From an uncultured Planctomycetota bacterium (lineage in GTDB: Bacteria; Planctomycetota; Planctomycetia; Isosphaerales; Isosphaeraceae), in assembly GCA_963845755.1 (NCBI GenBank), contig CAWJTV010000011.1, forward strand, positions 608,001 to 672,000: a DNA stretch of 64,000 bases. Reading direction: 5' to 3'. Below are positions 2,261 through 32,365 of this stretch, piece by piece. How positions within the stretch are numbered: position 1 is the stretch's first letter; each line of letters begins with the position of its first letter. Made by a program: the position numbers and the translations under genes. Under the pieces are notes generated by a model that saw only the letters and a list, made by a program, of their open reading frames with translations, did no database searches and was not told the origin of the DNA.

Positions 2261-2296
2261 GGCCTCGGGTCCGGCTCGCGGTATGATCCGGGTACT

Positions 2297-12688: not shown

Positions 12689-15024
12689 CTAGTCGGTCGT
12701 ATAGGTCCCGTAGATGTTGTCGTTGGAGGTGGTGGCGAAGTTGCCGACGACCTTGGTCTTGGTGAGCGTGGTGATGGTGCCGGCGGCGATGTAGAGTCCG
12801 CCGCCGTAGCCTTTGCCCCCGCCCGAGCCGCCGATGGCCGAGTTGAGGGTGACCAACACGTCGGTGAGCGAGGCGTTGGCGCCGGTCCCGGAGATGAAGA
12901 CCCCGCCGCCCTCGCCGGCGCCGCCGCCCTGACCGCCGATCGCCGAGTTGCCGGCGATCAGCCCGCCTTTGACCTTGAGAGTGGCCGCGTACTCGAACAC
13001 GCCGCCGCCCTGGGCATCGCCCGCGAATCCGGGGGTGCTGGTGCCCTGGCCGCCGGCGCCGCCGACGGCGGTGTTGCCGAGGATCATGACGTTGGCGAGC
13101 TTCGCCGAGCCCCCGTAGAACACGTAGATGCCGCCGCCCTGGCCGTAGCCCCCGCCGCCGCCGGTATTGCCCTGACCGCCGTCGCTGCCGATGGCGCCGT
13201 TCCCGGTGATCGCGGTGCCGCCGAGCGTCAAGGCGCCTTGCCCGCCGACGAAGATGCCGCCGCCCCAGCCGTAGCCGCCGGTCTCGCCGGCTCCGTAGGA
13301 CGCGTCAGCACCCTTGCCGCCTCTCGCGACGTTGCCAGCGATCACGCCGCCCTGGATGGACAGGGACGCGCCGGTCGTACCGACCGCGCCGCCGATGCCT
13401 TCGTTCCCGTAATAAGCGGGAATTGGCGAGGCGCTGGTGCCCGGGCTCCCGAGGGCCTGGTTGCCGATGAAGGAGGTCTTGGTCACGGAAGCGGGGGTGT
13501 CTACCAAATCCAGCGCGCCGCCCTCGACATAGGTGCTGTATGAGGGTACTCCGGTGCCGCCGACGGCCTGGTTCCCGGTGAACAGGCTGTCGGCGATCGT
13601 TGTCATGAGCGTCGGGCTCGGTTTGGAGTTGAAGAAGAGCTGGCTGTAGATCGCCCCGCCGAGCGCAGCTTGCAGGCCCTGTCCGGAGCCGCTCACCGCC
13701 TGGTTGCCGGAGAACTTATCGGATGTGAGGGCGAGGGCCTCCAGATACGTGTCGATGGCGCCGCCATAGGCGGGACCCGAGGCTTCATCCGAGGGATTGA
13801 TGGTGCTGCTGTCGCCCAGGGCCTGGTTCCCGGTGAACGTGCTCCCGCTGATGGTGGTGGTTCCCCCCCCGGAGGCGCCGAAGCCGCCAATGTTGATCGC
13901 GCCGCCCTGAGCCTGGCTGCCGGCGGTGCCCGTGCCGATGGCCATGTTCCCGGAAAACAGGGAATTCGTGATCGTCACGGGGCTCGGAGGGGGCGGAGGG
14001 AAGCCGTAGGGCGTGCCGGGAGCGACCGCGAGCGCACCGCCAGCAGCGAGGCCGGGGCCGCCTTGAGTCAAGGACTCTTCCGCCTCGTTGTTGAGGAACT
14101 GGCTCGTGCTGATCGTCACCACAACCTGCGGGTCCGTCCAGATCGCGCCGCCGGCCGCGGTCCCGCCCTCGAAGCCAAACTCCGAGGGGTTGTTGATCGC
14201 CACGTTCCCGCGGAACGTGCTGCCGGTGACCGACAAGCTCCCATATACTGTGGAATACAGGTAAGCCGCATTGATGACGTTGATTGCGCCGCCCTGGGCA
14301 TCGACGCTGAAGGACTGGTTGTCGATGAAGGTGCTCGAGCTCACGGAGACGCTCGAGCCATTCTCGGCGTCGATCGCGCCGCCGTCGCCCGTGAAGAACA
14401 GGGCCTTCGCCGAGCCCGCCGTGTTGTCCTCGAACAGGTCGTTGTCGATGGTGAGACTCAGTCCGGTGCGATCGCCGCCGTTGGAGATGCCGCCACCCGA
14501 GCCGCCGGGCGCCTGGTTGTCCTTCAGGACGCTGTCCTCGAGTGTCAGGTTAACCTGGCGCGAGGATCCCGCCCCCGTTGCTGAATACCGCCGTTCCCGT
14601 CGGCAATCGTCAGGCCCGAGACGGTCATGTCGGCGGCCGGTTCGGAGGGATCGTAAGGAAAGACCCCCAGCTCGAAGACGGTGTACGTATCGTTGCCGCT
14701 GATCGTGAGCTTGTTTGCCCCCGGGCCCTGGATCGTCAGGTCGATGTTCGGGGCGCTGAGTGGTCCGCTGGTCAGGGTGATGGTCCCATACGCGCTGGGG
14801 GCGAAATCGATCGTGTCGCCCGAGACGGCCGAGCCGATCGCGGCGCGGAGCGAGCCGGAGCCGCTGTCGTCGTCATTGGTGACCGTGATCGTGCTCAGCA
14901 GCGCGCGCACCTCCAGCGGGATGAGGCGCGGGCTGAACCGCCACGCCGTACGAAGACGGGCCCGGCCCCGCCGGACGAAGACGGATCGCAGCCTGGGCAT
15001 ACCACCACGTGCCAATAATGACAT
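12689..15024 (-). CDS. Gly-rich beta-helix extracellular protein, paralog 3; frameshifts near 14460-14590
   Basis: [36 protein letters not shown] repeats; C-terminus [23 protein letters not shown]. Confidence 0.8.
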
Positions 15025-15581
15025 GATGCTACTCCTTGTTGCATGAATTCGGGACACAGAACGACCGCAGGACCACGGACGATGCCGAGCGGTCTGGCAC
15101 GGCGCGCACCGAGGGCGATACTCCGGGACCTTGGGGGAACGAGAGCCGGAGCCGCCCGCCTGCTGGTGCAGGGAGTTTCTTCGATCAGAACGACCCTCAA
15201 GGGACTAGGCGCTGTTTGCGTCGGTTCAGGGCGCGCGGATGGATCGGAATCCGTGGGCGTTTTCCCGGTCGGCGCATGGGACGGAATGCTCGTTGGACGG
15301 TTTGGCGGGGGGCGTGGCTGTTGACGCCTTCACCCCACGTCGGCTCTTCGCAAGACGTTGCGCGGCCGAGCTTGAGCCTGCGACGTCGGCCAGCCCCGGC
15401 GGATGCGACGGCGCGGGAGACCCCCGACGCCAGTGCCCCAGCCCCTCGATATTGGCAAGACGTGAAGCATGCCGTCGAGTTTTCTTGCATGAGTACCGAG
15501 GGGAAACCTTAGAATGGGTCCTCATCAAGGAGCCGGCCCGACGAAAGGAATGGCGCGAATGAGTCTCTCACGGTAGGGCAC

Positions 15582-17393
15582 ATGCACGACTTCGACCTGA
15601 TCCTCACGCTGACAGGCGGACTGGCCGCGGCACTGATCTGCGGCACCATCACATTCCGGCTCGGGCTCTCGCCGATCGTCGGCTACTTGCTGGCCGGGTT
15701 TATCGTCGGGCCGAATACGCCGGGATTCGTGGCCGACCGGGCGCTGGCGGACCAGCTTGCCGAGATCGGGATCATCCTGCTGATGTTCGGCGTGGGTTTG
15801 CAGTTCCACGTCGAGGAATTGCTGGCCGTGAGACGCGTTGCCGTGCCGGCGGCGATCGGCCAGAGTCTGGTCGCGATGCTGCTGGGGACTCTGGTTGGTG
15901 TGTCATTCGGCTGGAGCTGGCCGGCCAGCTTCATCTTCGGGCTGGCGATCTCGGTGGAGAGCACCGTGGTGCTCACGCGCGTGCTCTCGGACGCAGGTAC
16001 GCTGCACACTCCGGCCGGTCACATCGCCCTCGGCTGGCTCGTCGTCGAGGACCTGTTCACGGTCCTGGTGCTGGTGCTGCTGCCCGCGATCTTCGGCCGC
16101 GGTGGCATGGGCGCGGCCGGCCTGGCGGTCGCGGTGGTCGTGGCCCTGGTGAAGGTCGCGGCGATGGTCGGACTGACGTTCCTGGCTGGCCGACGGCTGA
16201 TCCCCTGGCTGCTCTCAGTGGTCGCGGCGACGCGCTCGCGCGAGCTGTTCACGCTCACGATCCTGGTCGTGGCGCTGGGGATCGCCGTGGGATCGGCGAA
16301 GGTCTTCGGCGTCTCGATGGCCCTGGGCGCGTTCCTGGCCGGCATGGTCGTGGGCCGATCGGAGTTCAGCCTGCGCGCGGCGACCGAGGCGCTGCCCATG
16401 CGCGATGCGTTCGCCGTGCTGTTCTTCGTCTCGGTCGGGATGCGGTTCGACCCGCATTCCCTGGCCGATGCGCCGGGCCTGGTGGCCGGCATGCTGGCGG
16501 TGATATTCCTGGGCAAGCCGCTGGCGGCGCTGGGCATCGTGCGGTGGCTCGGCTATCCCTGGCGCGTCTCGGCCTCGGTCGCCACGGCATTCATCCAGAT
16601 CGGCGAGTTCTCGTTCATCCTTGCCGCCGCGGGGAAGGGCCTGGGCATCCTCGACGATCGGGCCGAGAACGCGCTGATCGCCGGAGCCATCATCACCATC
16701 ACCTTGAACCCGATGCTCTACCGGCTCGCCCGGCCACTGGGGACCCTCCTGGGCCGATTCTTCGAGGAGCCCGCCGGATCGGAGACGGCCGTGCCCGAGC
16801 AGCAGGCCGGAGCCGAAACGGGGCGAGATCGGGCCGTGGTCGTCGGATATGGCCCGGTGGGCCGGACGCTCGCCCAGCTCCTCGGCGAGAACCAGATCGA
16901 GCCGGTCGTCATCGAGCTGAACCTCGAGACCGTGCGCCGGCTCAATACCGAGGGGATCGCGGCCGTCTATGGCGACGCGGCCCATGCGGAGACCCTGAAC
17001 CAGGCCGGATTCGGCGAGGCCCGCGCCTTGATCCTCAGCAGCTCCCAGTCCACGGGGAATCAGGAAGCCATTCGCCTGGCGCGCGAGCTGAATCCTAAGG
17101 CCTTGATCCTGGTCCGTTCGAATTACCTGCTCGAGCGGCCGGCGCTGTGCGGGGCGGGCGCCGATCTGGTGTTCTCCGGCGAGGGTGAGGTGGCCCTGTC
17201 GATGACCGAGGCGCTGCTCGAACACCTGGGGGCGACGCCCGAGCAGATCGACCGCGAACGGGCGCGGATCCGGTCCGATCTGTTCCAGGGCCGGGGAGCC
17301 CAAGGACCCTCGCCGGATGGCCCGCCCTCCTCGGAGGGAACGTGTGAGCCGACGGTCTCTCCTCCTATCAATTCGGATCTCCCATCAGGATGA
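15582..17393 (+). CDS. CPA2 cation:proton antiporter (YbaL/RosB/Kef-like) with a TrkA-N domain
   Basis: VGYLLAG, LAEIGIILLMFGVGL, WLVVEDL, ALGAFLAG, QIGEFSFIL; GYGPVG Rossmann motif and VYGDAA. Confidence 0.9.
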   Translation: MHDFDLILTLTGGLAAALICGTITFRLGLSPIVGYLLAGFIVGPNTPGFVADRALADQLAEIGIILLMFGVGLQFHVEELLAVRRVAVPAAIGQSLVAMLLGTLVGVSFGWSWPASFIFGLAISVESTVVLTRVLSDAGTLHTPAGHIALGWLVVEDLFTVLVLVLLPAIFGRGGMGAAGLAVAVVVALVKVAAMVGLTFLAGRRLIPWLLSVVAATRSRELFTLTILVVALGIAVGSAKVFGVSMALGAFLAGMVVGRSEFSLRAATEALPMRDAFAVLFFVSVGMRFDPHSLADAPGLVAGMLAVIFLGKPLAALGIVRWLGYPWRVSASVATAFIQIGEFSFILAAAGKGLGILDDRAENALIAGAIITITLNPMLYRLARPLGTLLGRFFEEPAGSETAVPEQQAGAETGRDRAVVVGYGPVGRTLAQLLGENQIEPVVIELNLETVRRLNTEGIAAVYGDAAHAETLNQAGFGEARALILSSSQSTGNQEAIRLARELNPKALILVRSNYLLERPALCGAGADLVFSGEGEVALSMTEALLEHLGATPEQIDRERARIRSDLFQGRGAQGPSPDGPPSSEGTCEPTVSPPINSDLPSG

Positions 17394-20300
17394 AGCCGGC
17401 CCAGTCGTGGGGATGAGCGAACGGGTGGCCTTCGGACCGGGCATTGGACCTGGCCCGGATCTCGCCCCGCGCGATCTGGCTCAATTCGCGCTCGACCTCG
17501 GTGCCGGTCAACCCGCGGAGCCACGCCTTGGCCTCGTGCAGCGCCTCGGCCTTCGAGAGCGGCTTGTCCAACCCGGGTCGCTTGCCCAGCCAGTTCTGAT
17601 AGAACCGGGCCATCAAGAGCGCGGACGACCTGTCATCCACTTCCCAAAGGCTGACGATCACGCTGCGGCTACCGGCCAGGAAGAACGCCTGGGCGAAGCC
17701 GACGAATCCTTCGCCGCCGCTTTGGCGTCCCAGGCCGCTCCGGCAGGCGCTCAGCGTAACCAACTCGGCATTGAGCTTCCAAGTGTTCATGACCTCGCCG
17801 GCGGTGAGTGTGCCATCGAAGACCGGCGCATTGAGCGAGACCGTGGCGGTCGGGTCGGGCAGCTTGTCCTGCGAGAGCAGCAGCCGGGAGTTCATCGGCG
17901 CGAGGTCGTCGATCTTACCATGGGTGGCCAGGTGAATCACGGTGAACCCGCCGAGCTGTCCGCGAGAGCGCACCGAGTCGAGGGTCTGTTCGCTCGCATC
18001 TGAACCGAGGTAGACCTCACGCTGGTCGAAGAATCCGGCGATGGTCTGGACCTCGCGGCGGGTGCCAGGCAGCGGATCGAAGGTCGCGCCGCGAGAGCGG
18101 CGGAGCGAGATGTCGCCCTCGCGCTGGGCGAGCAGGGCCTGCGGTGCCGGTTGGGTGTTCGGGACGACTCCGAGCGGCCCGGGACGGAGGGTCAATTCGA
18201 ACGTCTTATTGTCGCGCCAGACGGCAACCGCGATGCTCTTGACCTTGAGATCGCCGCCCTGGACCTGCTTCTCGAGGTCGTCGAGGGCCGCGAGCCTGGC
18301 GCCGCCATACTGGAGCAGGATATCGCCCGGCCGGATGCCAGCCTGTTCCGCGTTCGAACCGGGCTCCACCTGCTGGACGAGCAGGCCGTGATTGGGAGGT
18401 TTGGGCGCAGGCGGGTTGGACGTGTCGGCAGCCGGGGGCACGGGGTCGCCCAGGGCCAGCAGGCGGCGAGGCCGTGCCGGCTTGCCCTCCTCCTCGTGGC
18501 GCCGTTCCTGGAGCCAGGCGAAGATTGTGCCCGAGGGAGCATAGCTGACGAGGCGACGCGGCGCAGCCGGCGGACGGGCCTCGACCATCGCCTCGACGGG
18601 AATGCCTGCCAGTGCGGGCGACGGCAGGACGATCAGGTGCCGGACGGACGGCAGGCCGTCGCGAGCTTCCAAGGCAGTCTCCAGCGGCCCCAAGCGTTGC
18701 TGGGCCAACATGGCTAGGGGCGTCTGCCAGTCCTTCTCGATCTCAGTGCCGAGGAGTTGGCGGACCTGACCAGGCCGTTGTTCATCGGCCGGCCTCCACG
18801 CCGGGTCTGGTCCGATCCCGACGATGCGGATCCACTGTGGCACGCCAATGCGCCGGACCACGCAGGCCCAGTGGTCGCCGCGAGGATCGGCGGTGTTGGG
18901 CATGGTCTTGAGGTCGAGCCAGCCGACGAGCGCCGCGTCGGCGGGGATCCGGGCCTGAATCTGGTCGAGGTCGTACACCGCACCGGCGGTCGCCTTGTAT
19001 TTCCGGATGACCTCGGCCTCGAGTTGGACCAGCCGGCCCTGTAGATCGAGGCGCTGGCTCTTGAGCTCCTCGAGCTGCTTGCGCTGATCATTGGTGGGGT
19101 CCTCGACGCTCATCCGGGCATTGATCTGGTTGTCGAGCCGGTCGAGCCGGTAAGCCAGCTCATCATGGCCGCGTCGCTCGTCGAGCGTGAGGGGTCGGCG
19201 TCGGGCGGCCAGGTCATCGAACAAGCCGCGCGCCAGGCCGGATTCCCAGCGCTGCCAGGCGTCCGCGTCGCATGCCTGCCGGGCCAGGAGTGCGGCGAGG
19301 ACGGTCAGGGGCGATTGCTGCGACCCGAGCGCGATCCGGCCCATCCCCGTGAAGCTGACGCGAAGCCTCGCCGCCTCGTAACTCCGGGTCGCGGCGAGCG
19401 CCTGGGTTTCGGCGTCGGAGTAATTCCCCTGGGCGGCCAGGTTGAGAGCCAGGCCCGTGTAGCTCCGCGCCGTTTGGTCGTGTTCCTCACCCAGCCTGCG
19501 GCGGCGGATCTCCAACGACTTATCATAGAGCGCTTCCGCCTCAGCGTACTTCCCTTGCCGCTCCAGATTGACGGCCACTCTGCTGTATCCGACTGCCAGG
19601 TAGGGGTGGCTCTCGCCCAAGCGGCCCCGCCAGATGTCCACGGCTTTACGGTGCAGAGATTGAGCCTCGGCATACCTCTCTTGCCTCTCCAGATTGGCGG
19701 CCAGGTTGCTGTATCCGGCGGCCGTGTGGAGGTGGTCCTCGCCGAGCTGCTGGCGCCAGATGTCCACCGCCTTCTGAAGCAGTGGCTGGGCCTCGGCATA
19801 CTTCCCTTGATCGCGCAGGTTGGCGCCCAGATTGTTGTACGCCAGGGCCGTATCGGGGTGGTCCTCGCCTGAGGCGAGGCGGTAGATCTCCAGTGCCCTG
19901 CGGAGTAGCGGTTCGGACTCGGTGTCTTTGCCCTGGCCGGTGAGATCATAAGCCAGGTTATTGTAGCTCCTGGCGGTGTCGGAGCTGATCTCGCCCTGGG
20001 CCCGGCGGTGGATCTCCAGCGCCTTGTGGAGAAACGGCTGGGCCTCGGCGTACTTCCCTTGATCGCGGAGGTTGAGGCCCAGGTTATCGCAAGCATCGGC
20101 AATCCGAGGGGCATACTCGCCCTGAGTATGGAGGTTGATCTCCAGCGCCCGACGATAATGCGGCTCGGCCTCGGCGTATAGGCCCTGGCCGTCGAGGTTG
20201 GCGGCCAGGTCATTGTAGCTGGCGGCGGTATACGGGTGATTCTCACCCAGGGCGTGGCGATCGATCTCAAGCGCCTTCAGACAGAACGGCCTGGCTTCTT

Positions 20301-20859
20301 CATACCGCCCCTGGGCATCGAGGTTTTCGGTCAACCCGTTATAGATCCGGGCCGTGTTCGGGTGGTCCTCGCCCAGGATCTTGCGGCGAGTGTCAATCAC
20401 CGACCGGATCAGCGGTTCCGCCTCGGCGAAGCGCCCCTTCTGATGGAACTGCTCAATCTCCTCATCGTGCCGTATGGCCGCCGCCAGCTCGGATTGGGCT
20501 TCGCGCGGCAGGCCGGCCACGCGAGTGCACGACTGCTCCTCGATCCGCGCGTTGACCGTCTCCCAGTGGTCCTGGCCCTGCACGCGGTTGCGGATCGCCA
20601 GGACCTCTCTCGCGGGCGCAATCGCCTCGGCGAATCGACCTTTCTTCTCGAGATCAGCGATCTGTTTTTCCAGCGAATCGGCCCACTTGGCGTCGTCGCC
20701 TTGGAGGACGCGCTGCCAGGGGGGCTTCGACTTCAACACGACTTCCTTCCCTGGCGTCGCCTGAGCCAGCACCGGGGCAGCCGAGTTGATCAGGATGGAG
20801 CTTGCCAAGGAGGCGACGAGACACGAGGAAAAACACTTGTTGAAGATTCCGGTTCTCAT
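17368..20859 (-). CDS. Exported TPR-CHAT (caspase-like) protease with an inserted PDZ domain
   Basis: Signal peptide ...APVLA-Q; about nine 42-aa GEDHP-type TPRs; VEPGSNAEQAGIRPGDIL (PDZ); catalytic IHLATHG and VTLSACRSG; PFAHPHDWAGFILMG. Confidence 0.9.
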   Translation of the reverse strand: MRTGIFNKCFSSCLVASLASSILINSAAPVLAQATPGKEVVLKSKPPWQRVLQGDDAKWADSLEKQIADLEKKGRFAEAIAPAREVLAIRNRVQGQDHWETVNARIEEQSCTRVAGLPREAQSELAAAIRHDEEIEQFHQKGRFAEAEPLIRSVIDTRRKILGEDHPNTARIYNGLTENLDAQGRYEEARPFCLKALEIDRHALGENHPYTAASYNDLAANLDGQGLYAEAEPHYRRALEINLHTQGEYAPRIADACDNLGLNLRDQGKYAEAQPFLHKALEIHRRAQGEISSDTARSYNNLAYDLTGQGKDTESEPLLRRALEIYRLASGEDHPDTALAYNNLGANLRDQGKYAEAQPLLQKAVDIWRQQLGEDHLHTAAGYSNLAANLERQERYAEAQSLHRKAVDIWRGRLGESHPYLAVGYSRVAVNLERQGKYAEAEALYDKSLEIRRRRLGEEHDQTARSYTGLALNLAAQGNYSDAETQALAATRSYEAARLRVSFTGMGRIALGSQQSPLTVLAALLARQACDADAWQRWESGLARGLFDDLAARRRPLTLDERRGHDELAYRLDRLDNQINARMSVEDPTNDQRKQLEELKSQRLDLQGRLVQLEAEVIRKYKATAGAVYDLDQIQARIPADAALVGWLDLKTMPNTADPRGDHWACVVRRIGVPQWIRIVGIGPDPAWRPADEQRPGQVRQLLGTEIEKDWQTPLAMLAQQRLGPLETALEARDGLPSVRHLIVLPSPALAGIPVEAMVEARPPAAPRRLVSYAPSGTIFAWLQERRHEEEGKPARPRRLLALGDPVPPAADTSNPPAPKPPNHGLLVQQVEPGSNAEQAGIRPGDILLQYGGARLAALDDLEKQVQGGDLKVKSIAVAVWRDNKTFELTLRPGPLGVVPNTQPAPQALLAQREGDISLRRSRGATFDPLPGTRREVQTIAGFFDQREVYLGSDASEQTLDSVRSRGQLGGFTVIHLATHGKIDDLAPMNSRLLLSQDKLPDPTATVSLNAPVFDGTLTAGEVMNTWKLNAELVTLSACRSGLGRQSGGEGFVGFAQAFFLAGSRSVIVSLWEVDDRSSALLMARFYQNWLGKRPGLDKPLSKAEALHEAKAWLRGLTGTEVERELSQIARGEIRARSNARSEGHPFAHPHDWAGFILMGDPN

Positions 20860-20979
20860 GACAGGATTGCCTTTTTGAAGACATTCGGTCGGTCGATTGT
20901 TGACGTCGAGAGGCCCGCGCCGAACGCAGCGACGTGATCTCGTTTCCGGTTTTCCTCGGTACCATGGCCCTGTTGCCGT

Positions 20980-22961
20980 TCAATCCTTCGGCCTGACCGA
21001 GAAGGCAATGGCCTGGACTAGCTCGACGTCGGAGATCTCTTCGAGATACTCGCAGACCGCCAGGAGGGGCGCGGGGGCTTCGCGTTCGGAGCGTCGCCGG
21101 AGCTCACCGCGGGGGACGCTGGAGACCCGCTGGATCTCGCCGTCTTCGAAGCCCCAGACGCGGGAGACCCGATCGGGCGCGACGTGGCTCCAGGCGCTGA
21201 CGGAGGCCGTCCCTCCCGTTCCATCGGGCAAACGGCGGCAAGGATTTACGCGACGCGACGACCACGAACACTTGCAATCCGGGTCCGTCCGTCAAGCCGA
21301 AGGTCCCCGATGGGCCGAACGAGATGCTCGCCGATCGAGAGGGTGGATCGCTTTCCTTCGGGGGGCTGCACAACTGGACCATTCCGTCGGCGTTTAGGGC
21401 GATCAGATAACAGTAGGCCGGTGCGTCGAGCCGGGCGGTCAATCCCACTTCGTCACCGACCAGGATCGCCCGAGCGGATAAACCGAGCGGGCCGAACGAT
21501 TGCGGAGCGTCGCCGCGCAGGTGTTCGGTCTCGAAACTGACGGTCCTCAAGGGTGCGGCGGTGGCCGGCGAGATCACCATTCGTTCCGGCACCGACGATC
21601 GAGGCTGCGATCTCAGAGCCAGCAGCCAGGCGGCCAGTACTGCGAGTCCCATCAGGCCGGCCGCTGCGATCCGGCGCCGGGCGAGGAACCCGCGCAAGGC
21701 GCGTTCCAGCTCAAGGGCCGTTCGGTAGCGCCGCTCGGGATCGAGGGCCAGGGCTTTGTGGCAGATCCGCTCCATGGCGCGTGGCACGCGCCGGTTCAAC
21801 CTGGCGGACCGGGAGATACTCGGCGTTCAGCGCTTGCCGGAGCTTCGAGAAGCGCGAGAGCCCCCGGTAGAGCGGCTGGCTGGTCAGCAGGTGGTAGAGC
21901 AACCCACCCAGGCCGAAGACGTCGGTCAGGGGACCGATCCGATCGGCGCGGCCCTGCGCCTGCTCGGGACTCATGTAGGAGGCCGTACCGCCGGACCAGT
22001 CGACTGCGTCGTCGGACCAGGCGTGCCTCCAGCGAGCCAGGCCAAAGTCGATCAACCGAGGCCGGCCCTCAGAATCCATCAAGACGTTGCGCGGCTTGAT
22101 GTCCTGGTGGACGATCCCCCGATCGTGGAGGTAAGCGACGACCTGCGCCAGCTCGGCCACCAGCCGGGCCGCCTGTCGCGGAGCCGGCCGGTGAAGGCCG
22201 ACGAATTGCTCCAGGTTCAGACCGGGAACGTACAACATGACCATGTACGGCCGGCCTTCGTGGACGCCGAGATCATAGACTCGTACCAGGCCGGGATGGT
22301 CGCACTCGCATAAGAGCCGCGCTTCGTCAACCAACCGGTCATGTACGGGCGACATGGACTGGCACTCGACCCCTTGTTCGAGCGGCCGCTTGGCCAGCTT
22401 GAGGGCAAAGTTCTTGCACATCCACGGGTGGTGTACCAAGAAGACCTCGGCCTGACCCCCCGTATCCAGGCACGAGAGGACCAGGTACGTACCTATCCGT
22501 CGAGGCGGCTCGACGCCAGTGGCCGGGTTTGGCTCGCCCGGCGCCGACCCCGGTTCCTCGGAGCGCTCCTCCGAAGAACGGATTTCTCGTTCGCTGGATA
22601 CCAGCCCACCCAGCAAATCGCCCTCAACCGCTCTGGCCTGTTCGGGTTCGCCACGCTCGCCTGAGTTCGACGCGCGCGACTCAAGTCCCTGCTCGAAGGT
22701 TTCTAGCGCCCAGACCGTTTGGTCCTGCGAACCATCGCCGCTGATCCAGGACGACTGCCGCAGTTGGTGCAGTTGGTGCAGCACATCGAGGTCTCCGACA
22801 ATCGCCTCGTCGGAAAGGTCTCGATCGATCAGCCATTGGCGAGAGTCGGTCTCCAAATCGCGTTGCAGGTCCTCCCAGTATTCGTCCAGTAGCGCGGAGT
22901 AGTCCGGGTCCGAAATCGGGCCGTCACGCTCATCATGGTCAGATGATTGGCGATCCATCAT
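20980..22961 (-). CDS. Membrane Ser/Thr kinase with a C-terminal DUF4384-like domain; frameshifts near 21800 and 21195
   Basis: [76 protein letters not shown] overlap with the ECF stop. Confidence 0.8.
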
Positions 22962-23731
22962 GACCCGTCCTTCGCGATCGCGCGAAACAAGGGCTGTGCC
23001 TCGGCGATCCAGCGCGCGACGCACTCCTCCGACACCTGGAGCCGCTGCGCGATCTGCCTCGGATCAGCCCCCTGGAATCGATGGACGCCGATCGCGTCTT
23101 GCTGGTCAATGCGGAACCCGCGCCGGCTCATCAGCTCCTGTAACTGCATGGCCTCGCGGACACGACGGACCGCGCGGCAGTATCGTTGCCGCACCGCCGC
23201 TGGTGCGATCTCCAGATCGGCGGCGATTCTCTCGTGGCTCTGGCCTTCGAAGAGATGCAGGAAGATGATCGCCCGGTCCTCCTCGCGGCACCAGCTCGCG
23301 GCCAGAATCAGCCGATCGCATTCCTCGGCCCGCGCGAGCCGATCGGCCACGGACGTCGAAGAGCCGGCAAGCTCCTTCTGGTCGCTCCAGGCCGGATTGA
23401 CCGGCTTCTCCTGACCCACGTTCCGCCGTTGATTGTGCCAGTGCCGCAAGAGCTTGAGCAGCAGCTTGTCCTGGATGCGAGCGAGCCAGGTGTAGAATTC
23501 GCCAATGCTCTGGCCCTTGAATCGGTCGAACTGGATCGTGGCCCGAAGCAGAACCTTCTGGACCAAATCCGAGGCGTCTTCCTTGCAGTCCAGCTTCCGG
23601 GAGATTTGCTTCCCCGCGCTGCGGCGAAGTCCCGAGCGGCATGCCGCCATCCACTGGTTTAGGGTGGACGGACTCCTCTGACCTGCCTGCCTGATCGGCC
23701 CATTCAAGGGTCGCGCCGTCGATGATTCCAT
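22958..23731 (-). CDS. ECF (sigma-70 family) sigma factor, planctomycete type, with a C-terminal extension
   Basis: DASDLVQ...[13 protein letters not shown] (region 2); [27 protein letters not shown] (region 4); start codon uncertain. Confidence 0.8.
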
Positions 23732-24217
23732 GGGAGCATTCCCGTCCGGCCTGTCGCGGCGACTTCGCAATCTATTCCGAGTACCGAGCACGATCACGGT
23801 TGTGACGGAGCCGCTGAATCGCCGGCGCGATCTGGTCCCGGCGCCGTCCTCAGAGATTGGCATGCATTCGGGGATAATTCGTACACGTGAGTCGTTGAAT
23901 CCTGATCGACAATCCATGATCTCAGCTCGGGGATCTCAGTTCGGCGGAGATCGCAAGAATCGCTTTCTGGCCCTGTCACACTCTTCGCGAAAAGGGAGCT
24001 TACCCCCATGGAGGACGTGCGGTGTGTGTGACCAGAGGCCCGGCATGGACCCGACCCATTGGGCCGGCGAGGACCATCCCGCAGCCCACATTCCTGTGGC
24101 CCGAGGCGTTGATCACCACATGGTTTCTCGGAGGCAAAACCCGAGGAATCGCGACGGGAGTCATGAGATTCGAAACGAAGTCCGAACCCATTGGGTTCTG
24201 CCGACAAGGAGAAAAGC

Positions 24218-25039
24218 ATGAACATCCGACAGCTTTACCTCGTTCTTTGTCTAGTCTGCTGGATCGGGCTGGGTGATCTTGCCCTCGGCCATGCGCAAGG
24301 GGGTACGATTTCGCCGCTCACGCTCTATGATAGCGCGAATGCCCCATGGACCGTCACCTGGAACGACCCCAATGTCACCATCACAACGACTCCCGCTAAC
24401 GGGAGTACGCCTACTGCGCAAACCACGGCAATGCAACTGAACTATGCGTTCGCTCAACCCAACACCACTCCTCTCGTTCTCACATTCACTGAGGTGAATG
24501 TGGCAACCTCGAGCTACGGCGGCAAGAATGGAGACGGCACGGCTGGGCTCAACTTCAGGCTAACCGAAGCCTTGACCAATAATCTTCTCGACCCCATTGT
24601 CAGGATCAGCGAGGTGCTGAGAGATTCGGACATAATGCCCGATGCGAATAAGAATCTTGTCTACCTCACACGGGCCCAGGAAAACACCCTCTACACGAAC
24701 GGCAGTGCTCACCACCCGGGCTTTTCACACTTCCACACCTTGGGGGGGGCCAACTACGCTGGGTTCACGCCGAACCAATTCAACGGGACGAATGACCTCG
24801 AACTCACCAACGGAACGATCGCGGTCGGCGCCACGGCCACGATTGGTGCCTTCAAGATCCACGACATTGTTGTTGATCAATACAAAAGACAGTTCACGCT
24901 GACGGTCACGGCGGCGACTGCGAACCCGGAGCCGGCGTCGGTGATCATGCTGTCGATCGGAATGGCGTCGATCGTGGGATACACCTTTCAGCGGAGAAAG
25001 CGGGCACGTCTTGGAAACCGACCCAGTGAAACCGTGTGA
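24218..25039 (+). CDS. PEP-CTERM sorting-domain surface protein
   Basis: AAGGAG RBS; signal peptide; Thr/Asn-rich body; NPEPASVIMLSIGMASIVGYTFQRRKR tail. Confidence 0.88.
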   Translation: MNIRQLYLVLCLVCWIGLGDLALGHAQGGTISPLTLYDSANAPWTVTWNDPNVTITTTPANGSTPTAQTTAMQLNYAFAQPNTTPLVLTFTEVNVATSSYGGKNGDGTAGLNFRLTEALTNNLLDPIVRISEVLRDSDIMPDANKNLVYLTRAQENTLYTNGSAHHPGFSHFHTLGGANYAGFTPNQFNGTNDLELTNGTIAVGATATIGAFKIHDIVVDQYKRQFTLTVTAATANPEPASVIMLSIGMASIVGYTFQRRKRARLGNRPSETV

Positions 25040-25197: not shown

Positions 25198-25359
25198 AGA
25201 GCCCGGCTCCGACAAGGACCGGGGCCTGCGGTCTCACGTTCCTCGACGGCGAGGAGCCTACGATACGGGTTCGCGTTCATTGCCCGAACGATGTCCGCGC
25301 GAACGTCGTCCACGTGCAGAAGTTTGCCCGCGCCGTACCCGTTCCCTGAGGCTCGTCGG

Positions 25360-26524
25360 TCATCGATTCGAGCCTGATGACGCCTCGATCTCCGCCCGCA
25401 AGGCGGTGATATCCTGAAGGATGGCCGGCAGCTCGTCCAGGGGGAACTGGGACTTGACGGCGCCGTTCCAGAAATGCCGCTTTGTTCATACCGTAGACGA
25501 CGGAGGTGAATTCGTCCTGGCCGAGCGTGAATCCTCCCGCGGCCAGGATGGCCTTGCAGCCGTCAACACCGTCGCGGCCCATGCCGGTCATGATGATGCC
25601 GACGGTCGCCGACTGGTAGACCCTGGCCGCCGCCTGGAACAACACGTCAATCGAGGGCCGATGCCCGCTGACTTCCGGGTCGTCGGTGATCACGGCCCGC
25701 ACCCGCGGCGGATGTCCCGTCAGGGCCAGGTGCCGGTCGCCCGGGGCGATCAAGATCTGATCGGGGAGCACCAGGTCGCCTTCCTGGGCCATCTTGACCT
25801 TGATCGAGTCGGGCGTGTGGCGATTGAGCCGCTCGGCGAAGGTCCTGTTGAACTCCGCCAGCATGTGCTGGACCAGGAGGATCGGCGGGAGCGGCGCGGT
25901 CAGCATCGGGAAGACCTGGCTGAGTGCCTGCGGGCCGCCGGTCGAGATCCCGATGACGATGCACGGGGCCGCCGCCGCAGCCGAGACCCGCCCCGGCTTC
26001 GTGCCCGGTGGACGCGACGCCGTCGTGGGCGATGTCGCGGTGGTTGCCCGGAGGGCGGCGCGGCGCGGGCGCCGGACCCGGCTCTGGGCGGCGCCCAGCA
26101 CCTTGGCGATGAGCAGGTCGCGGCTGGCGCGCATCTCCGCGAGCTGGTTCCGCTCGGGTTTGGGCAGGAAGTCGACCGCGCCCAGCTCCAGGGCCTGCAA
26201 GGTCACCTCGGCCCCTTCCTGCGTCAAGGCGCTGACCATCACCACCGGCACTTCGTGGACGGCTAGAATCGACGGCAGCGCGTCCAGGCCCGAGACCTCC
26301 GGCATCTCCACGTCCAGCGTGATCACGTCCGGCTTGAGCTTCAGCGCCTGGGCGACTGCCTCGCGGCCATCGCGCCCGTAGCCGGCGATCTCGATCTCCG
26401 GTGACCCGCTGAGTAGGTCTGACAAGAGCCGGCGCATCAACGCCGAATCGTCCACGATCAGCACGCGGACCTTGCCGCGGACCTCGTCGCTTTCCGGCAT
26501 CTGCTCGCGATCGGAAGTCGCCAT
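25360..26524 (-). CDS. cheB: Chemotaxis response regulator methylesterase; frameshift near 25467
   Basis: REC domain VLIVDDS/ITLDVEMP; IGISTGGP, VQHM, HRPSID, MTGMGRDG. Confidence 0.93.
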
Positions 26525-26572
26525 GGTGGGTCTCGTCTCGTCGGCGGCGATCCGCGATTGAAGAAGGACTCT

Positions 26573-26641
26573 CGATTCGAGATTCGAGATTCAGAGATTC
26601 GAGATTCAGAGATTCGAGATTCAAGATTCGAGATTCAAGAT
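26573..26641. repeat. Tandem heptamer/octamer array (GAGATTC/AAGATTC)n
   Basis: About nine GATTC-core units; degenerate inverse units TTGAATTTTGAATC at about 26673-26688. Confidence 0.85.
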
Positions 26642-26748
26642 CGATCGTTCTTATTTCAGCAGCCATCCGTATCTTGAATTTTGAATCTGTAGTCGAGGAT
26701 TCCCCCGATGCGCACGCAATGAGGCGTTCCTCCGGAAAAGGCTTCGAC

Positions 26749-27135
26749 TCACGTCGGCGCCGCCGGAGGCGGCCCGTCACCGCCCAGTTTGGCCAGCAGG
26801 TTGAGGACCCGCTGACGCTCGAACGGCTTGACGATGAAGTCGAATGCACCGTCACGAATCGATTCTATCAACGTCTGTTTCTGATCGAGCGCGGTAACCA
26901 CGACGACCTTCGCCTCCGGGTCGCTGGCGCGGATCAGGCGCAGGGCCTCCAAACCCCCCATCTCCGGCATGACGAGATCCATCGTCACCAGGTCGGGGCG
27001 GAGCTGCTTGTAAAGTGCCACGGCATCCACCCCATTGCCGGCCTCACCCACGACCTCCCAGCCGGCTTCGGCCGCTACGCCGGAGATCATCTTTCGCATG
27101 AACAGGGCGTCGTCGACAACCAGGAGACGTTTCAT
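26749..27135 (-). CDS. cheY: Chemotaxis response regulator
   Basis: Single REC domain: VVDDALFMR, VTMDLVMP, FIVKPF; inside the che cluster. Confidence 0.9.
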   Translation of the reverse strand: MKRLLVVDDALFMRKMISGVAAEAGWEVVGEAGNGVDAVALYKQLRPDLVTMDLVMPEMGGLEALRLIRASDPEAKVVVVTALDQKQTLIESIRDGAFDFIVKPFERQRVLNLLAKLGGDGPPPAAPT

Positions 27136-27193
27136 GGGCTCACCCCGTTGTATGGAAACCTGATGCGACTCGCTCGAGGATCTCGGCCTGGGG

Positions 27194-27586
27194 TTACTTC
27201 AAACTTCTTGTTAAGATCCAAAGTACCATCGCGCAGAGGGCGACCGCCACCATCAGGCACCTCAGGCGTACCCGGAGGAGCCATGGAAAAAACAGGGCGA
27301 CGATCGCGAGTACCGATCCGAATCCGGCGCCGCAGGCCGATCCCAGTCCCGCGCCGGTCTTGAGACCAGCCTGAGCGGGGCTCCATGAGGGAGGCGGAGG
27401 GTCGCCGTCCAGTGCATACAGGCCCCTCGCGATGCCCGGCGCGAAGACGCCGACGAGGAGACCGAGCGTCCCTCCGCACAGGCCGAATGCCAGGGCGGCG
27501 ACGGCGATGATTTCGAATGCGCGCCTCAAGATGGCGGCTCGACTCTCATTCAGAAGGATCTCCGGCACACCGTGGCTAGATCTCAT
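27194..27586 (-). CDS. Hypothetical small membrane protein inside the che cluster
   Basis: Three hydrophobic segments; overlaps the cheD stop; start uncertain. Confidence 0.5.
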   Translation of the reverse strand: MRSSHGVPEILLNESRAAILRRAFEIIAVAALAFGLCGGTLGLLVGVFAPGIARGLYALDGDPPPPSWSPAQAGLKTGAGLGSACGAGFGSVLAIVALFFPWLLRVRLRCLMVAVALCAMVLWILTRSLK

Positions 27587-28103
27587 ATTCAGATCCTCCC
27601 GGGACCTTGATCGCGATCATGCCCGAACTGGTGTCCAGGGTCAACCGGCGGCCGGCCGTGCCGCCGAGGTCGCGGGCCAGGATCGGGATCTTCCAGTCGC
27701 TCAGGATCTGCTCGATGGCCTCCTGGTTCCGCTGGCCGATATTGAGCGTGGAATTGACGTCGGGATTGAGCTGGAACATGCTAGCTCCGCCCGCGAGCTT
27801 GGCGGTCAGGCGCGTGCGGACCTTGGCACCGAGCCGACGCTCGAAGTCGGCAATCAGGGTGGGTATTGCCGTGTCGGCGTACTTGCCGGGATGATCGACC
27901 GCCCCTCGCGCCGAGGGGAGCACGACGTGGGCTAGACCCCCCAGCCTGGCAATCCGATCGTAGAGGACGACACCCACGCACGAGCCGAGGAGCGTCCGGA
28001 TCCGGGTCGGCGCGGCGGCGACGACCCATTGGCCGATCGCCACGGAGACGACCTCGAGGGATGCCGGCGGTTCGGTCGAGCGGGGGATCGGCACGGTCGC
28101 CAC
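27576..28103 (-). CDS. cheD: Chemoreceptor glutamine deamidase
   Basis: TLLGSCVGV, GGLAHVVLP, KYADTAI, AKLAGGASMF, IGQRN, DLGG..GR. Confidence 0.92.
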   Translation of the reverse strand: MATVPIPRSTEPPASLEVVSVAIGQWVVAAAPTRIRTLLGSCVGVVLYDRIARLGGLAHVVLPSARGAVDHPGKYADTAIPTLIADFERRLGAKVRTRLTAKLAGGASMFQLNPDVNSTLNIGQRNQEAIEQILSDWKIPILARDLGGTAGRRLTLDTSSGMIAIKVPGGSEYEI

Positions 28104-28104
28104 C

Positions 28105-28758
28105 TCACGGGGAATCGGGGGATTCGAGCCGGCCCAGCGACGTGGCCAGCGTCTCGAGCGCCGCACGGCTCGGGATGAACAACAGCGTCCAGTTGAGGTT
28201 CAGCCCTGGCCGATCCCCGGCGAAATCGCTACGGATCAGCAGGACCTGGTCCAGCTCCAGGGCCTGCTCCATCAGGGCAAACTCGAGCAGGCTGCCGGCA
28301 AATTCGTGCAAGAACGTCGGAGGCGTGGGGACCAGCTCGTCGGCGACGGACTCGCGGGCGCCGGGCAGGTGCGCCGCCAGCGCGTTGACGTACGCGCAGC
28401 CCACGATGTTGGTCGTCTCCTTGGCGGCCGACTGCTCGAGGTCGCCCCAGGACGTGGTCGTGCCGATCGGTTGGTGCATGAGCAGGTTGACCAGGGCCAG
28501 TCCCGAGCGGTCCTCGAACACCAGGAGGATCGAGCCGGTGAGCCGGCCGGTCAGCCCCATCGCGCAGGCCGCGACCAGGGCATCCGGAGGGCCCAGCAGG
28601 TCGGCCGCCCGATCCAGCTCGAGCAGGTCGACCTCGCTGATCGTCAGCCGGACCTCGGCGCCCAACCATTTCGAAAGCGCCAGCGACGCGGCCTCGGCGC
28701 CCCGGTCGAAGATCATCCGCAACAATCGACACTGGGCGTCCGTCAGGATGGGTTGCAT
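28105..28758 (-). CDS. cheC: CheC-family phosphatase
   Basis: GAEAASLALSKWLG; SAAKETTNIVGCAYVNAL (ExxN motif); lies between cheA and cheD. Confidence 0.85.
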   Translation of the reverse strand: MQPILTDAQCRLLRMIFDRGAEAASLALSKWLGAEVRLTISEVDLLELDRAADLLGPPDALVAACAMGLTGRLTGSILLVFEDRSGLALVNLLMHQPIGTTTSWGDLEQSAAKETTNIVGCAYVNALAAHLPGARESVADELVPTPPTFLHEFAGSLLEFALMEQALELDQVLLIRSDFAGDRPGLNLNWTLLFIPSRAALETLATSLGRLESPDSP

Positions 28759-28855
28759 GGGTTCTAACTTCGGATTATAGATTGTACATTCAAGATTCAA
28801 GATTCACCAAAATCCTGATGGAATGGGAGCCCGGAATTCGGTGTTGGGCCCTCCA

Positions 28856-31297: not shown

Positions 31298-31349
31298 GTC
31301 GTTCCCTCCCGGGTGTCGGGAGCCCTTCGGTCGTTCGTGTGTGGTCTCC

Positions 31350-31414
31350 GTAGGGTGCTCGGTGAGCACCGGCGAGGGCCGGACACGGGAATTGGTGCTT
31401 ACCGAGCACCCTGC
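31350..31414. repeat. GTAG-type REP doublet between cheR and cheA
   Basis: GTAGGGTGCTCGGTGAGCACC ... GGTGCTTACCGAGCACCCTGC. Confidence 0.85.
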
Positions 31415-31445
31415 AAGCCTGCGTGCAACCCAAGAGTACGCCGCG

Positions 31446-32279
31446 CTAGCCACTGGGTTTCTGGTAAAGCCACGGCGAGAGTTTCGTCAGGGGGTCGAGC
31501 ATGGTGTAGATCCCCTCGGTGGGGCCCACGACCAGGTAACCGCCCGTGTTCAGGGCGTCGATCAGGTTGCGGACGACGACCTCCTTGGAGTCCTTATCGA
31601 AATAGATCAGCACGTTTTTGATGAAGATGCAATCGAACGGCTCCTCCTTGAGGGGGGAGAGCAGGTTGTGTTGCTTCCAGGTGACGAGCGCCTTGACGAC
31701 CGCCTTGACCTTCCAGCGCCGGGCGGGCTCGTCCTCGTCGAAATAGGCCAGTCGCTGGTCGGGCTCGACGAGTCGGATGGCGCGGGCGTCGTAGCCGCCG
31801 GTCCGGGCGGCGGCCAGGACCGAGCCGCTCAGGTCGGTTCCCAGGATCGTGGTGCGCCATCCGGCGAACGTCGCCTTCTTCTGCAGGATTTTCAGGGCGA
31901 TCGAGTAGGGCTCTTCGCCGGTGCTGCACGCCGCCGACCAGATGCGCAGCGACCTGGGCCGTCTCCGCAGCGCCGCCTGGTTGGCGATCTCGGGGAGGAA
32001 CGCGTCGCCGAGCCATTTGTAATGCTGGGGGTCGCGGAAAAAGTAGGTCTCGTTGGTGGTGATCGCGTCGAGGAACATCGGCATCTCGCCATTGCCGGCG
32101 GGCGAGGTCAGGTGGACATAGTATTCGGCAAAGGTGCCGATCCCGGTGGCGCGCAACCGTCGCCGTACGCGGTTGCCGATCATCACCCTCTTGTTCTCGG
32201 CGATCCGGATGCCGGCAACCCGGTAGATCAGCTTGCAGAACCTGTCGTACTCGTCATCGGTTAACTCGGTGTTGATCAT
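31446..32279 (-). CDS. cheR: Chemotaxis methyltransferase
   Basis: TTNETYFFRD, IWSAACSTGEEPYS, GTDLS, FDCIFIKNVLIYFD. Confidence 0.95.
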   Translation of the reverse strand: MINTELTDDEYDRFCKLIYRVAGIRIAENKRVMIGNRVRRRLRATGIGTFAEYYVHLTSPAGNGEMPMFLDAITTNETYFFRDPQHYKWLGDAFLPEIANQAALRRRPRSLRIWSAACSTGEEPYSIALKILQKKATFAGWRTTILGTDLSGSVLAAARTGGYDARAIRLVEPDQRLAYFDEDEPARRWKVKAVVKALVTWKQHNLLSPLKEEPFDCIFIKNVLIYFDKDSKEVVVRNLIDALNTGGYLVVGPTEGIYTMLDPLTKLSPWLYQKPSG

Positions 32280-32294
32280 GGTTTCGTCTTCGCC

Positions 32295-32354
32295 GGAGTC
32301 CCGCCTTCAGGCGGAACCGGAGCAAGATCTTAGGACCGGCTGAAGCCGGGACTC
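32295..32354. repeat. REP-like doublet
   Basis: GGAGTCCCGCCTTCAGGCGG ... CCGGCTGAAGCCGGGACTCC. Confidence 0.7.
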
Positions 32355-32365
32355 CAACTCGGGAC

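Follow-up and report, generated by a model that had tools for sequence, protein, structure and literature searches.

The closest described system to the locus reported here is DdvA-DdvS of Myxococcus xanthus. DdvA is a periplasmic anti-sigma factor of the tetratricopeptide repeat (TPR)-CHAT type whose CHAT domain faces a flexible linker to the transmembrane helix; self-cleavage by this domain has been proposed, the catalytic dyad is described in a resting state, and dyad mutants were like the wild type under the conditions tested (PMC11506125, partial text). The present locus lies in a 64,000-nucleotide stretch of DNA (the window) from an uncultured Planctomycetota bacterium of the Isosphaeraceae (GenBank assembly GCA_963845755.1, contig CAWJTV010000011.1, positions 608,001 to 672,000 of the forward strand) and holds genes for a sigma factor of the extracytoplasmic function (ECF) type, a single-pass Hanks-type Ser/Thr kinase and an exported TPR-(PDZ)-CHAT protease. 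With somewhat more confidence than doubt, we read the three as an envelope-to-transcription signalling module, the mechanism of which we infer because of three precedents, i.e., DdvA-DdvS, Craspase and a gene cluster of Haliangium ochraceum.

In the type III-E Craspase, Csx29 cleaves Csx30, which binds RpoE, and Kato et al. report that some Csx30 C-terminal domains are DUF4384 (bioRxiv 2022.08.17.504292, partial text). The type III-B cluster of H. ochraceum encodes SAVED-CHAT, PCaspase, PCc-sigma and the kinase PCk, and its authors put forward the hypothesis that the kinase is activated through modification by the protease (bioRxiv 2023.06.23.546230, partial text). A separate line of work concerns ECF43 sigma factors, in which the phosphorylated residue is a Thr, the third residue of the sigma2.2 DxxD motif; where canonical ECFs have DxxDxxQE, ECF43 members have the consensus QTTA and EcfK has QATE, its Thr being T51 (PMC13147305, partial text). 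Each part of the concept put forward here is known and the combination is new; a literature search found no description of a module of ECF, Hanks kinase and exported TPR-CHAT protein, and "CHAT" occurs nowhere in the text of the ECF reclassification paper.

Gene order of the locus

The three genes stand head to tail on the minus strand, ECF first, kinase second and TPR-PDZ-CHAT gene last, co-oriented as the initial annotation had them:

22958 to 23731, minus strand: gene for the ECF sigma factor, 257 aa (Pfam, homologues, alignment A1)
20980 to 22961, minus strand: gene for the Hanks-type Ser/Thr kinase, in three frames (Pfam, orthologue comparison)
17368 to 20859, minus strand: gene for the exported TPR-PDZ-CHAT caspase-like protease, 1163 aa (Pfam, homologues, structural model)

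The overlap of the ECF stop with the kinase start, also noted there, can be read in the sequence as ATGA (...GGG TCA TGA / ATG ATG GAT, the kinase ATG lying at 22961), and through it the two genes are predicted to be translationally coupled. The CHAT gene begins 120 bp past the kinase and is the final gene of the operon; its 3' end (17368-17393) forms a 26-bp convergent overlap with a Na+/H+ exchanger-TrkA_N (KefB-like) gene at 15582-17393 on the plus strand. As a whole, the observation in the initial annotation is partly confirmed, and its interpretation, a relay from protease through kinase to sigma factor, is partly supported.

Coupling of the kinase ectodomain and the TPR-CHAT protein

When the ectodomain of the kinase from the related locus L001 was used as a query, 97 proteins were retrieved, nearly all of them Ser/Thr kinases of 400-750 aa, and a search with the CHAT region of the window protein (aa 521-1163) gave 1856 homologues at E<=1e-10 among 8000 candidates scored, the best 120 of which share 44-82% identity where the match spans the region. 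Natural fusions among these homologues are, judging by their sequences, the strongest result for a link between ectodomain and CHAT protein. Four of them, P0193 (1673 aa), P0203 (1648 aa), and P0202 and P0205 (1886 aa each), run in one order from kinase to transmembrane helix, ectodomain (ending ..QAIAFPV..), a short linker (from a few residues up to about 15), PPWQRVL.. and the TPR repeats, a middle region, an optional PDZ domain and CHAT. The fifth, P0197 (1399 aa), lacks the DUF4384-like domain and passes from kinase and transmembrane helix through about 45 residues to KPPWQRVL.. and TPR-CHAT. None of the five has the signal peptide of the free CHAT protein, the place of which is taken by the kinase transmembrane helix, together with the ectodomain in four. 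Because the intergenic stretch and the signal peptide are missing, the fusions are not a read-through of adjacent genes, and they therefore indicate that kinase and CHAT protein work jointly at the outer face of the membrane. They likewise indicate that the ~30 residues with which the free CHAT protein begins serve as an export signal and can be dispensed with. The earlier suggestion that the CHAT protein and the DUF4384-like domain could share a compartment gains support from this replacement of the signal peptide with transmembrane helix and ectodomain.

Co-occurrence was tested through exact size matches between the longest contigs of the listed homologues, the expectation being taken from near-misses. 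Same-contig matches numbered 12 between the 97 ectodomain-kinases and the best 120 CHAT homologues (about 0.3 expected), 6 between ECF homologues and the same 120 CHAT homologues (about 0.1 expected), and 6 between ECF homologues and kinases (about 0.4 expected).

A genome scan covered 80 related Planctomycetota ECF loci (L001-L080). Five of these (L001-L005) form the close family, with ECFs matching the window ECF over their full length at 46-58% identity, and the other 75 contain distant Planctomycetota ECFs with 26-43% identity, mostly 26-34%, in the best segment. In L001 and L003 the ECF is followed by an intact kinase with a full ectodomain and by TPR-CHAT. In L002 and L005 the kinase ends soon after the transmembrane helix and there is no CHAT gene, and the genes that follow are for a WD40 protein and an aminotransferase on the other strand. 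L004 is cut off by a contig edge and is uninformative for ectodomain and CHAT. Full ectodomain and CHAT are accordingly both present in three loci (window, L001 and L003) and both absent in two (L002 and L005). Kept or lost together and sometimes made as one polypeptide, the two are shown by this comparison of predicted proteins to form one extracytoplasmic unit. An ECF tree, an unsupported neighbour-joining tree made with Biopython, gives a hint that the CHAT-less loci sit among CHAT-bearing ones.

Of the 80 loci, 56 have a kinase ORF (open reading frame) immediately downstream of the ECF and on its strand, and Pfam confirmed Pkinase in 50 of the 50 distant kinase ORFs scanned, L039 having been left out for an internal stop. 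ECF-kinase pairing is therefore ordinary in Planctomycetota, as the initial annotation had assumed. The C-terminal sensor parts of the distant kinases vary (WD40, TPR, 3-keto-disaccharide hydrolase-like, dCache, or none), and their ECF matches nearly all end near residue 200, before the C-terminal extension described below. The CHAT gene is specific to the close ECF family among the loci scanned: a local hidden Markov model (HMM) run on all 8111 six-frame ORFs of the 80 loci found no CHAT outside L001 and L003, and Pfam found none among 48 distant-locus ORFs (the 46 downstream ones that are co-oriented and 400 aa or longer, and two weak HMM hits, which proved to be PDZ only), the 42 opposite-strand ORFs of this size being covered by the HMM alone. 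The survey of the triad proposed at the outset thus had a divided outcome, with the ECF-kinase pair widespread and the full trio recurring in L001 and L003, and with CHAT in 0 of the 75 distant loci and missing from L002 and L005. In L019, L021, L034, L073 and L080, the gene after the kinase encodes an exported DUF11/CARDB repeat protein, and ECF, kinase and exported partner may be a general planctomycete layout. The 97 ectodomain-kinases and the many close CHAT relatives listed suggest that the module with CHAT is common in Isosphaeraceae-like planctomycetes.

These data bear on a different reading, distinctly unlikely in our view, in which the CHAT protease is the output: the kinase would sense through its own ectodomain and activate the ECF, and the exported CHAT protein would act on envelope or external proteins, e.g., PEP-CTERM proteins. 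The place of CHAT as the last gene of the operon, its export, the different exported third gene (DUF11/CARDB) of other ECF-kinase subfamilies and the PEP-CTERM gene divergently upstream would all suit such an arrangement. However, five fusions tether TPR-CHAT to the outer end of the kinase, which would be unexpected for a free effector, and the joint loss of ectodomain and CHAT in L002 and L005 also speaks against it.

The kinase and its ectodomain

The kinase matches Pkinase in Pfam with E 8.5e-34 (117.6 bits against a cut-off of 31.7) and has the features of the Hanks type, i.e., the catalytic Lys, an HRD-like Asp, and DFG and APE-like (SPEQ) motifs, along with a family-specific N-terminal region. 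The parts on which its topology depends are as follows:

21614 to 21670, minus strand: single transmembrane helix (Kyte-Doolittle 2.33 over 19 aa)
20983 to 21613, minus strand: extracytoplasmic region, with a flexible linker, a DUF4384-like beta-sandwich and an alpha/beta subdomain with a conserved C-terminus

The helix is the only segment of the kinase with hydropathy above 1.2, and RRR stands just before it, so the C-terminal ~210 aa should lie outside. Within that region, the beta-sandwich core (21245-21460) resembles DUF4384 (PF14326) at a level below the Pfam gathering cut-off of 27: the window kinase scores 19.2 bits (E 1.3e-3) and the L001 ectodomain 23.4 bits. At E<=0.01, the family is matched by 34 of 58 aligned ectodomain homologues (alignment A2; best 1.6e-6), a precomputed PF14326 annotation is found on 7 of the 97, and 26 of the 30 nearest ESM-Atlas clusters are DUF4384. 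An AlphaFold2 model of the L001 ectodomain (pLDDT 92.7, pTM 0.87) consists of a flexible linker of ~20 residues, then a beta-sandwich (22-121) and an alpha/beta subdomain (133-204); used in a fold search of the PDB, it had no match at E<=0.001, the best being 0.07. We regard the ectodomain as a probable divergent, sub-threshold relative of DUF4384, for which "DUF4384-like" is a fair name. Of the kinase topology proposed in the initial annotation, the helix and the outward-facing domain stood, and the DUF4384 assignment holds only at a score beneath the Pfam cut-off. In a preprint atlas of bacterial kinases, DUF4384 is listed for the "Proteo1" family alone, as one of the options at the C-terminus.

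Two ectodomain homologues, P0090 and P0119, have no kinase, and in them the ectodomain is joined by a transmembrane helix to a TIR domain. The anti-sigma-type zinc finger zf-HC2 occurs in 9 of the 58 ectodomain-kinases of alignment A2.

The TPR-PDZ-CHAT protease

Four features make up the protein encoded by the last gene:

20761 to 20859, minus strand: signal-peptide-like N-terminus, aa 1-33, ending ..VLA|QA, with n-, h- and c-region features
19315 to 20457, minus strand: TPR array of kinesin-light-chain-like TPR_12/TPR_10 repeats, about aa 135-515 (Pfam; 126-bp tandem period)
18181 to 18393, minus strand: PDZ domain inserted in the CHAT region, aa 823-893 (Pfam PDZ_6, PDZ_2)
17377 to 18717, minus strand: CHAT domain (Pfam E 2.8e-59, 201.4 bits against a cut-off of 24)

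The N-terminus, MRTGIFNKCFSSCLVASLASSILINSAAPVLA|QA, resembles a signal peptide. The N-termini of the window, L001 and L003 proteins have no common sequence, and each shows basic residues, a hydrophobic stretch and an A-x-A/Q-type end; a crude signal-peptide rule was passed by 56 of the 120 best CHAT homologues, most of the others being truncated gene models or fusions. A lipoprotein signal was also considered and rejected, the Cys not being kept in the N-termini of L001 and L003. The conserved mature start, PPWQRVLxGDDA, comes at about residue 46, and eight TPR_10/TPR_12 units were found by Pfam. In both sequence and fold searches, the PDZ insert resembles the periplasmic PDZ of RseP and the PDZ of HtrA; it is optional, being present in the L001 protein and missing in the L003 orthologue (12744-15998) and in fusions such as P0193 and P0203.

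The putative catalytic residues, His980 (HLATHG; codon 17920-17922) and Cys1039 (LSACRSG; codon 17743-17745), are invariant in 54 of 54 aligned homologues. The signal peptide and intact His-Cys dyad claimed for this protein are therefore both borne out. A model of aa 521-1163 (pLDDT 81.3) retrieved Csx29 as the best Foldseek match (E 5.9e-8), then human separase, and DdvA (8rot_A) at 1.1e-5, all with probability 1.00; a sequence search against the PDB returned TPR and PDZ relatives only, i.e., the relation of the CHAT domain is visible by fold alone. With CHAT and its His-Cys dyad placed after TPR repeats, the protein has the makeup of the TPR-CHAT protease class (separase/Csx29/DdvA) and is predicted to be a catalytically equipped TPR-CHAT peptidase.

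We considered whether the TPR-CHAT protein might be a non-proteolytic co-receptor that binds a ligand by its TPR and PDZ parts and acts on the kinase by allostery, no cleavage being involved. The fusions are consistent with this, as they demonstrate physical coupling and are silent on cleavage, and so is DdvA, given its resting dyad and wild-type-like dyad mutants under the conditions tested (PMC11506125, partial text). The invariance of His980 and Cys1039 nevertheless argues that catalysis is under selection, and we hold the co-receptor to be unlikely.

Compared with DdvA-DdvS, the present locus is similar in that an ECF would be controlled across the membrane via an extracytoplasmic TPR-CHAT protein of the separase/craspase type with a His-Cys dyad, although here this is read from the genes. 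A flexible linker between transmembrane helix and outer module is shared with DdvA, besides the fold match given above, and the fused homologues, like DdvA, place a cytoplasmic transducer, a transmembrane helix and TPR-CHAT in one chain. In contrast to DdvA, the transducer in the window is a Hanks kinase and not a zinc anti-sigma domain, and the TPR-CHAT part is a separate secreted protein, with the addition of the DUF4384-like domain and, in most members, of PDZ. The window thus does not present the DdvA arrangement of zinc anti-sigma domain, transmembrane helix and periplasmic TPR-CHAT in one chain; zf-HC2 is absent from the window kinase and from the kinases of L001-L003, and the fused relatives carry a kinase in place of the zinc domain. 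The two systems also differ in taxon, the present one being from Planctomycetota, in the absence of a nearby defence island and in that sigma release by intramembrane proteolysis is not implied here.

The analogy with Csx29 drawn in the initial annotation holds structurally, given the Foldseek match and the DUF4384 domains on some Csx30 proteins, and the Craspase (Cas7-11/Csx29) likewise ties a TPR-CHAT protease to an ECF-type sigma factor. Unlike the window protease with its signal peptide, however, Craspase is cytoplasmic and RNA-guided, and the sigma regulator in the window is a kinase rather than Csx30 or Csx31. No Cas domain was found among the 39 large window ORFs scanned and no CRISPR-like tandem array in the window, in keeping with the CRISPR-independent setting that had been envisaged; the locus does not have the set of Cas7-11, CRISPR array and cytoplasmic protease that marks a type III-E Craspase. 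The H. ochraceum cluster resembles the present trio in encoding a CHAT/caspase protease, a sigma factor and a Ser/Thr kinase together, but it is cytoplasmic, is triggered by cyclic oligoadenylate via SAVED in a CRISPR/CBASS context and, unlike the window trio, is in the partial text of its description without TPR, without a transmembrane kinase and without a DUF4384-like domain (bioRxiv 2023.06.23.546230).

The ECF sigma factor

The ECF protein contains Sigma70_r2 (44-96) and Sigma70_r4_2 (150-190), with an overall match to Sigma70_ECF (Pfam). Sigma2 and sigma4 are its only sigma domains, as is usual for ECF (group 4) members of the sigma-70 family, and they are followed by a family-specific helix-turn-helix (HTH)-like extension at about aa 197-257, in which Pfam matches HTH_23 and the HTH-like stretch itself covers aa 220-243. 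In NCBIfam, TIGR02937 is matched at 66.4 bits, over its cut-off of 42.9, and the best match, TIGR02984 (Sig-70_plancto1), reaches 112 bits, under its cut-off of 183.75. The family is sharply bounded, as 61 full-length homologues share 45-97% identity, all 61 with the C-terminal extension, and identity then falls to about 31%.

The sigma2.2 motif of the family is D-[AGV]-S-D-L-V-Q-[EK], read as DASDLVQ in the window, with both Asp of DxxD invariant. S54, at the third position of DxxD, is Ser in 36 of 36 aligned sequences (alignment A1). By alignment it corresponds to the phospho-Thr position of EcfP and EcfK and appears the better candidate for a phosphosite than the Ser of FKGQS proposed earlier (S75), which it displaces, S75 being Ser or Thr in only 30 of the 36.

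The comparison with the pairs EcfP-PknT of Vibrio parahaemolyticus and EcfK-PknS of Xanthomonas citri is close in several respects. An ECF gene stands beside the gene for a transmembrane Hanks kinase (PMC13147305, partial text), with a Hanks-type kinase gene as a conserved neighbour of the window ECF family (all five close loci, 56 of 80 overall); the hydroxyl residue at the third DxxD position is shared, as is an S/T-rich sigma2-sigma4 linker, SSTS at 124-127 in the window and likewise S/T-rich in EcfK; and, as in ECF43 pairs, no anti-sigma gene is present among the window trio or its immediate flanks. The window ECF differs from EcfP and EcfK, as given in the partial text of their report, in keeping both Asp (DASD versus QTTA or QATE), so that it does not show the replaced acidic residues and conserved Thr typical of ECF43, and in its extra C-terminal HTH-like domain. 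The window kinase, unlike those of the two pairs, has a family-specific N-terminal region, a DUF4384-like ectodomain and a CHAT partner.

Reading frames of the kinase gene

The initial annotation had treated the kinase as one reading frame, and this was not borne out, as two +1 shifts had been read through without mention. Comparison with orthologues places the kinase in the frames 22961-21798, 21796-21194 and 21192-20980, separated as follows:

21794 to 21800, minus strand: frameshift 1, one extra base between codons GTT (V) and AAC (N), at ~21797
21190 to 21196, minus strand: frameshift 2, one extra base between CGC (R) and TGG (W), GLRQR|WSHVAPD, at ~21193

The intact orthologues (630-658 aa) in L001 (658 aa) and L003 (630 aa) have all three window pieces in one frame, i.e., they retain the uninterrupted frame of a Hanks kinase that the window gene as written does not. 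The two downstream, shifted pieces are open and conserved with the orthologues (E 3.8e-62 and 3e-17). At least five other window genes are split across frames in the same way, with a Pfam domain continuing in the second frame:

32389-33303 and 32369-33208, minus strand: split MCPsignal gene
1970-3268 and 3009-3794, plus strand: split Pyr_redox_2 gene
62261-63013 and 62410-63492, plus strand: split Cellulase gene
40673-41446 and 36859-41640, minus strand: split Pkinase-nSTAND1 gene
45675-46448 then 41895-45506, minus strand: split Pkinase then nSTAND1 gene

With the two in the kinase included, frameshifts fall at a density of about one per 9 kb, and the window looks like an indel-prone assembly. 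In addition, the CHAT genes P0206 and P0251, on contigs holding the closest ECF relatives, track the window CHAT to about residue 927 or 912 and then run out of frame. Since at least five other genes are split, the shifted pieces are conserved and two relatives are broken at other sites, both kinase frameshifts are most likely assembly errors rather than biology, as far as sequence comparison can tell. Programmed +1 frameshifting was considered as well and rejected, given that five unrelated window genes are also split.

The two frameshifts would be expected if the trio were a decaying remnant in which the kinase is a true pseudogene and signalling in this host has ceased. We find this very improbable in view of the evidence just given, i.e., the other genes split alike in the 64-kb window, the open and conserved out-of-frame parts, the intact orthologues of L001 and L003, and the two close relatives whose CHAT genes are broken at other positions.

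Proposed mechanism

In the module that we favour, the ECF and the single-pass Hanks kinase would be the cytoplasmic core, and the TPR-CHAT protein would dock on the kinase ectodomain. Its TPR and PDZ parts may recognise a periplasmic protein or peptide cue, which would activate the docked CHAT protease. CHAT might then cut the juxtamembrane linker or the ectodomain of the kinase, or otherwise alter the state of the kinase, whereupon the cytoplasmic kinase would switch and phosphorylate the ECF, the likeliest site being Ser54, with or without the S/T-rich sigma2-sigma4 linker. The phosphorylated sigma factor would engage RNA polymerase, and GTTCCC-N13-YGTGAC, found upstream of the operon, would be a candidate control site. 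We also considered the module as a protease-gated receptor kinase in the strict sense, in which the docked TPR-CHAT protein clips the outer part of the kinase on cue and so switches on ECF phosphorylation, with DUF4384 as a general docking or substrate module for CHAT/caspase proteases that Csx30 of Craspase would share; this we put forward tentatively, as possible but doubtful.

Several points weigh against the module as drawn. The matching of contigs is indirect, two of the contigs are of Mb size and show presence on the same contig rather than adjacency, and the matching covers the best 120 of 1856 CHAT homologues. The DUF4384-like domain is not obligatory for coupling, because the P0197 fusion is made without it, and most CHAT paralogues must work without such a kinase, because the CHAT family, with 1856 homologues, greatly exceeds the 97 ectodomain-kinases. 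Two of the five informative family loci have neither ectodomain nor CHAT, so that the sigma-kinase core can do without them, and independent co-losses are not established, since the only tree is the unsupported neighbour-joining one. Because both Asp of DxxD are kept in the ECF family, the charge-replacement logic of ECF43 may not apply here. Lastly, the kinase as written is broken twice, and should these breaks be genuine, the module does not function in this genome.

Upstream element and flanking genes

Two features lie upstream of the ECF gene:

23975 to 23999, minus strand: conserved element GCTCCC-N13-TGTGAC, 244-268 bp upstream of the ECF start (alignment A5)
24218 to 25039, plus strand: divergent gene for an exported PEP-CTERM protein, with a signal-like N-terminus and the C-terminal sequence PEPASVIMLSIGMASIVGYTFQRRKRA

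The form GTTCCC-N13-YGTGAC occurs once in each of the five close loci, 242-470 bp upstream of the ECF and on the ECF strand (L001, 9734-9758; L002, 9690-9714; L003, 9754-9778; L004, 9530-9554; L005, 9559-9583), and has no occurrence in the other 75 loci. It falls within a ~70-bp conserved block upstream of the ECF, and its conservation and position make it a candidate promoter or operator for the operon. By eye, a reading as a classical GGAAC-N16-CGT ECF promoter that faces the PEP-CTERM gene fits no more than three of six loci.

PEP-CTERM genes are also found divergently upstream in L001 (8534-9442, minus strand) and L005 (8574-9431, minus strand), and 2.4 kb away in L004 (6405-7589, minus strand). 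The divergent PEP-CTERM proteins have no homology to one another beyond the sorting signal, and the gene is possibly a regulon member by position only. A Bac_transf sugar transferase gene lies upstream in L003 and L004. Together, the PEP-CTERM and sugar transferase neighbours may hint at an exopolysaccharide or surface-protein regulon.

Just upstream in the window, on the same strand, is a chemotaxis-like cluster (25277-34826, minus strand) of CheB, CheA-CheW, CheR, a GAF-domain protein and the split methyl-accepting chemotaxis protein (MCP) domain. Two tandem paralogous giant genes (36856-41574 and 41892-46418, minus strand) encode Pkinase, nSTAND1 NTPase and FGE-sulfatase domains, an architecture that is conflict-system-like, and each has a frameshift close to its kinase domain. 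An FHA-GAF-SpoIIE (PP2C-type) phosphatase gene follows at 47035-48744 (minus strand), a possible Ser/Thr phosphatase counterpart to the many kinases of the region. Adjacent small ORFs at 844-2283 (plus strand) with UPF0175 and DUF5615 matches form a toxin-antitoxin-like pair, and the window also contains a Schlafen AlbA_2 gene. PADLOC returned generic kinase and TPR matches only.

Such neighbours raise the question of whether the trio serves as an anti-phage or anti-predator conflict alarm, a reading about role that is compatible with the mechanism proposed above. Known ECF-linked CHAT/caspase systems are defence-linked (PMC11506125 and bioRxiv 2023.06.23.546230, partial texts), the same ectodomain occurs on the TIR proteins P0090 and P0119, and the kinase-nSTAND1-FGE-sulfatase genes and the Schlafen gene lie in the same window. 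On the other hand, neither PADLOC nor the scan for Cas domains and CRISPR-like arrays gave more specific support, and the flanks of L001-L005 are without defence genes and hold PEP-CTERM, sugar transferase, WD40 and metabolic genes instead, which leaves the alarm quite improbable.

Implications

If the proposed module is correct, it would join two recently reported ways of controlling an ECF sigma factor, i.e., phosphorylation by a Hanks kinase, as in ECF43, and control through a periplasmic TPR-CHAT protein, as in DdvA. The parts are found both as separate proteins and joined in a single one, and these split and fused forms would offer a clean experimental handle. Should cleavage of the ectodomain also prove true, DUF4384 would gain a role as a partner domain of CHAT/caspase proteases, which would bear on the Craspase substrate Csx30.

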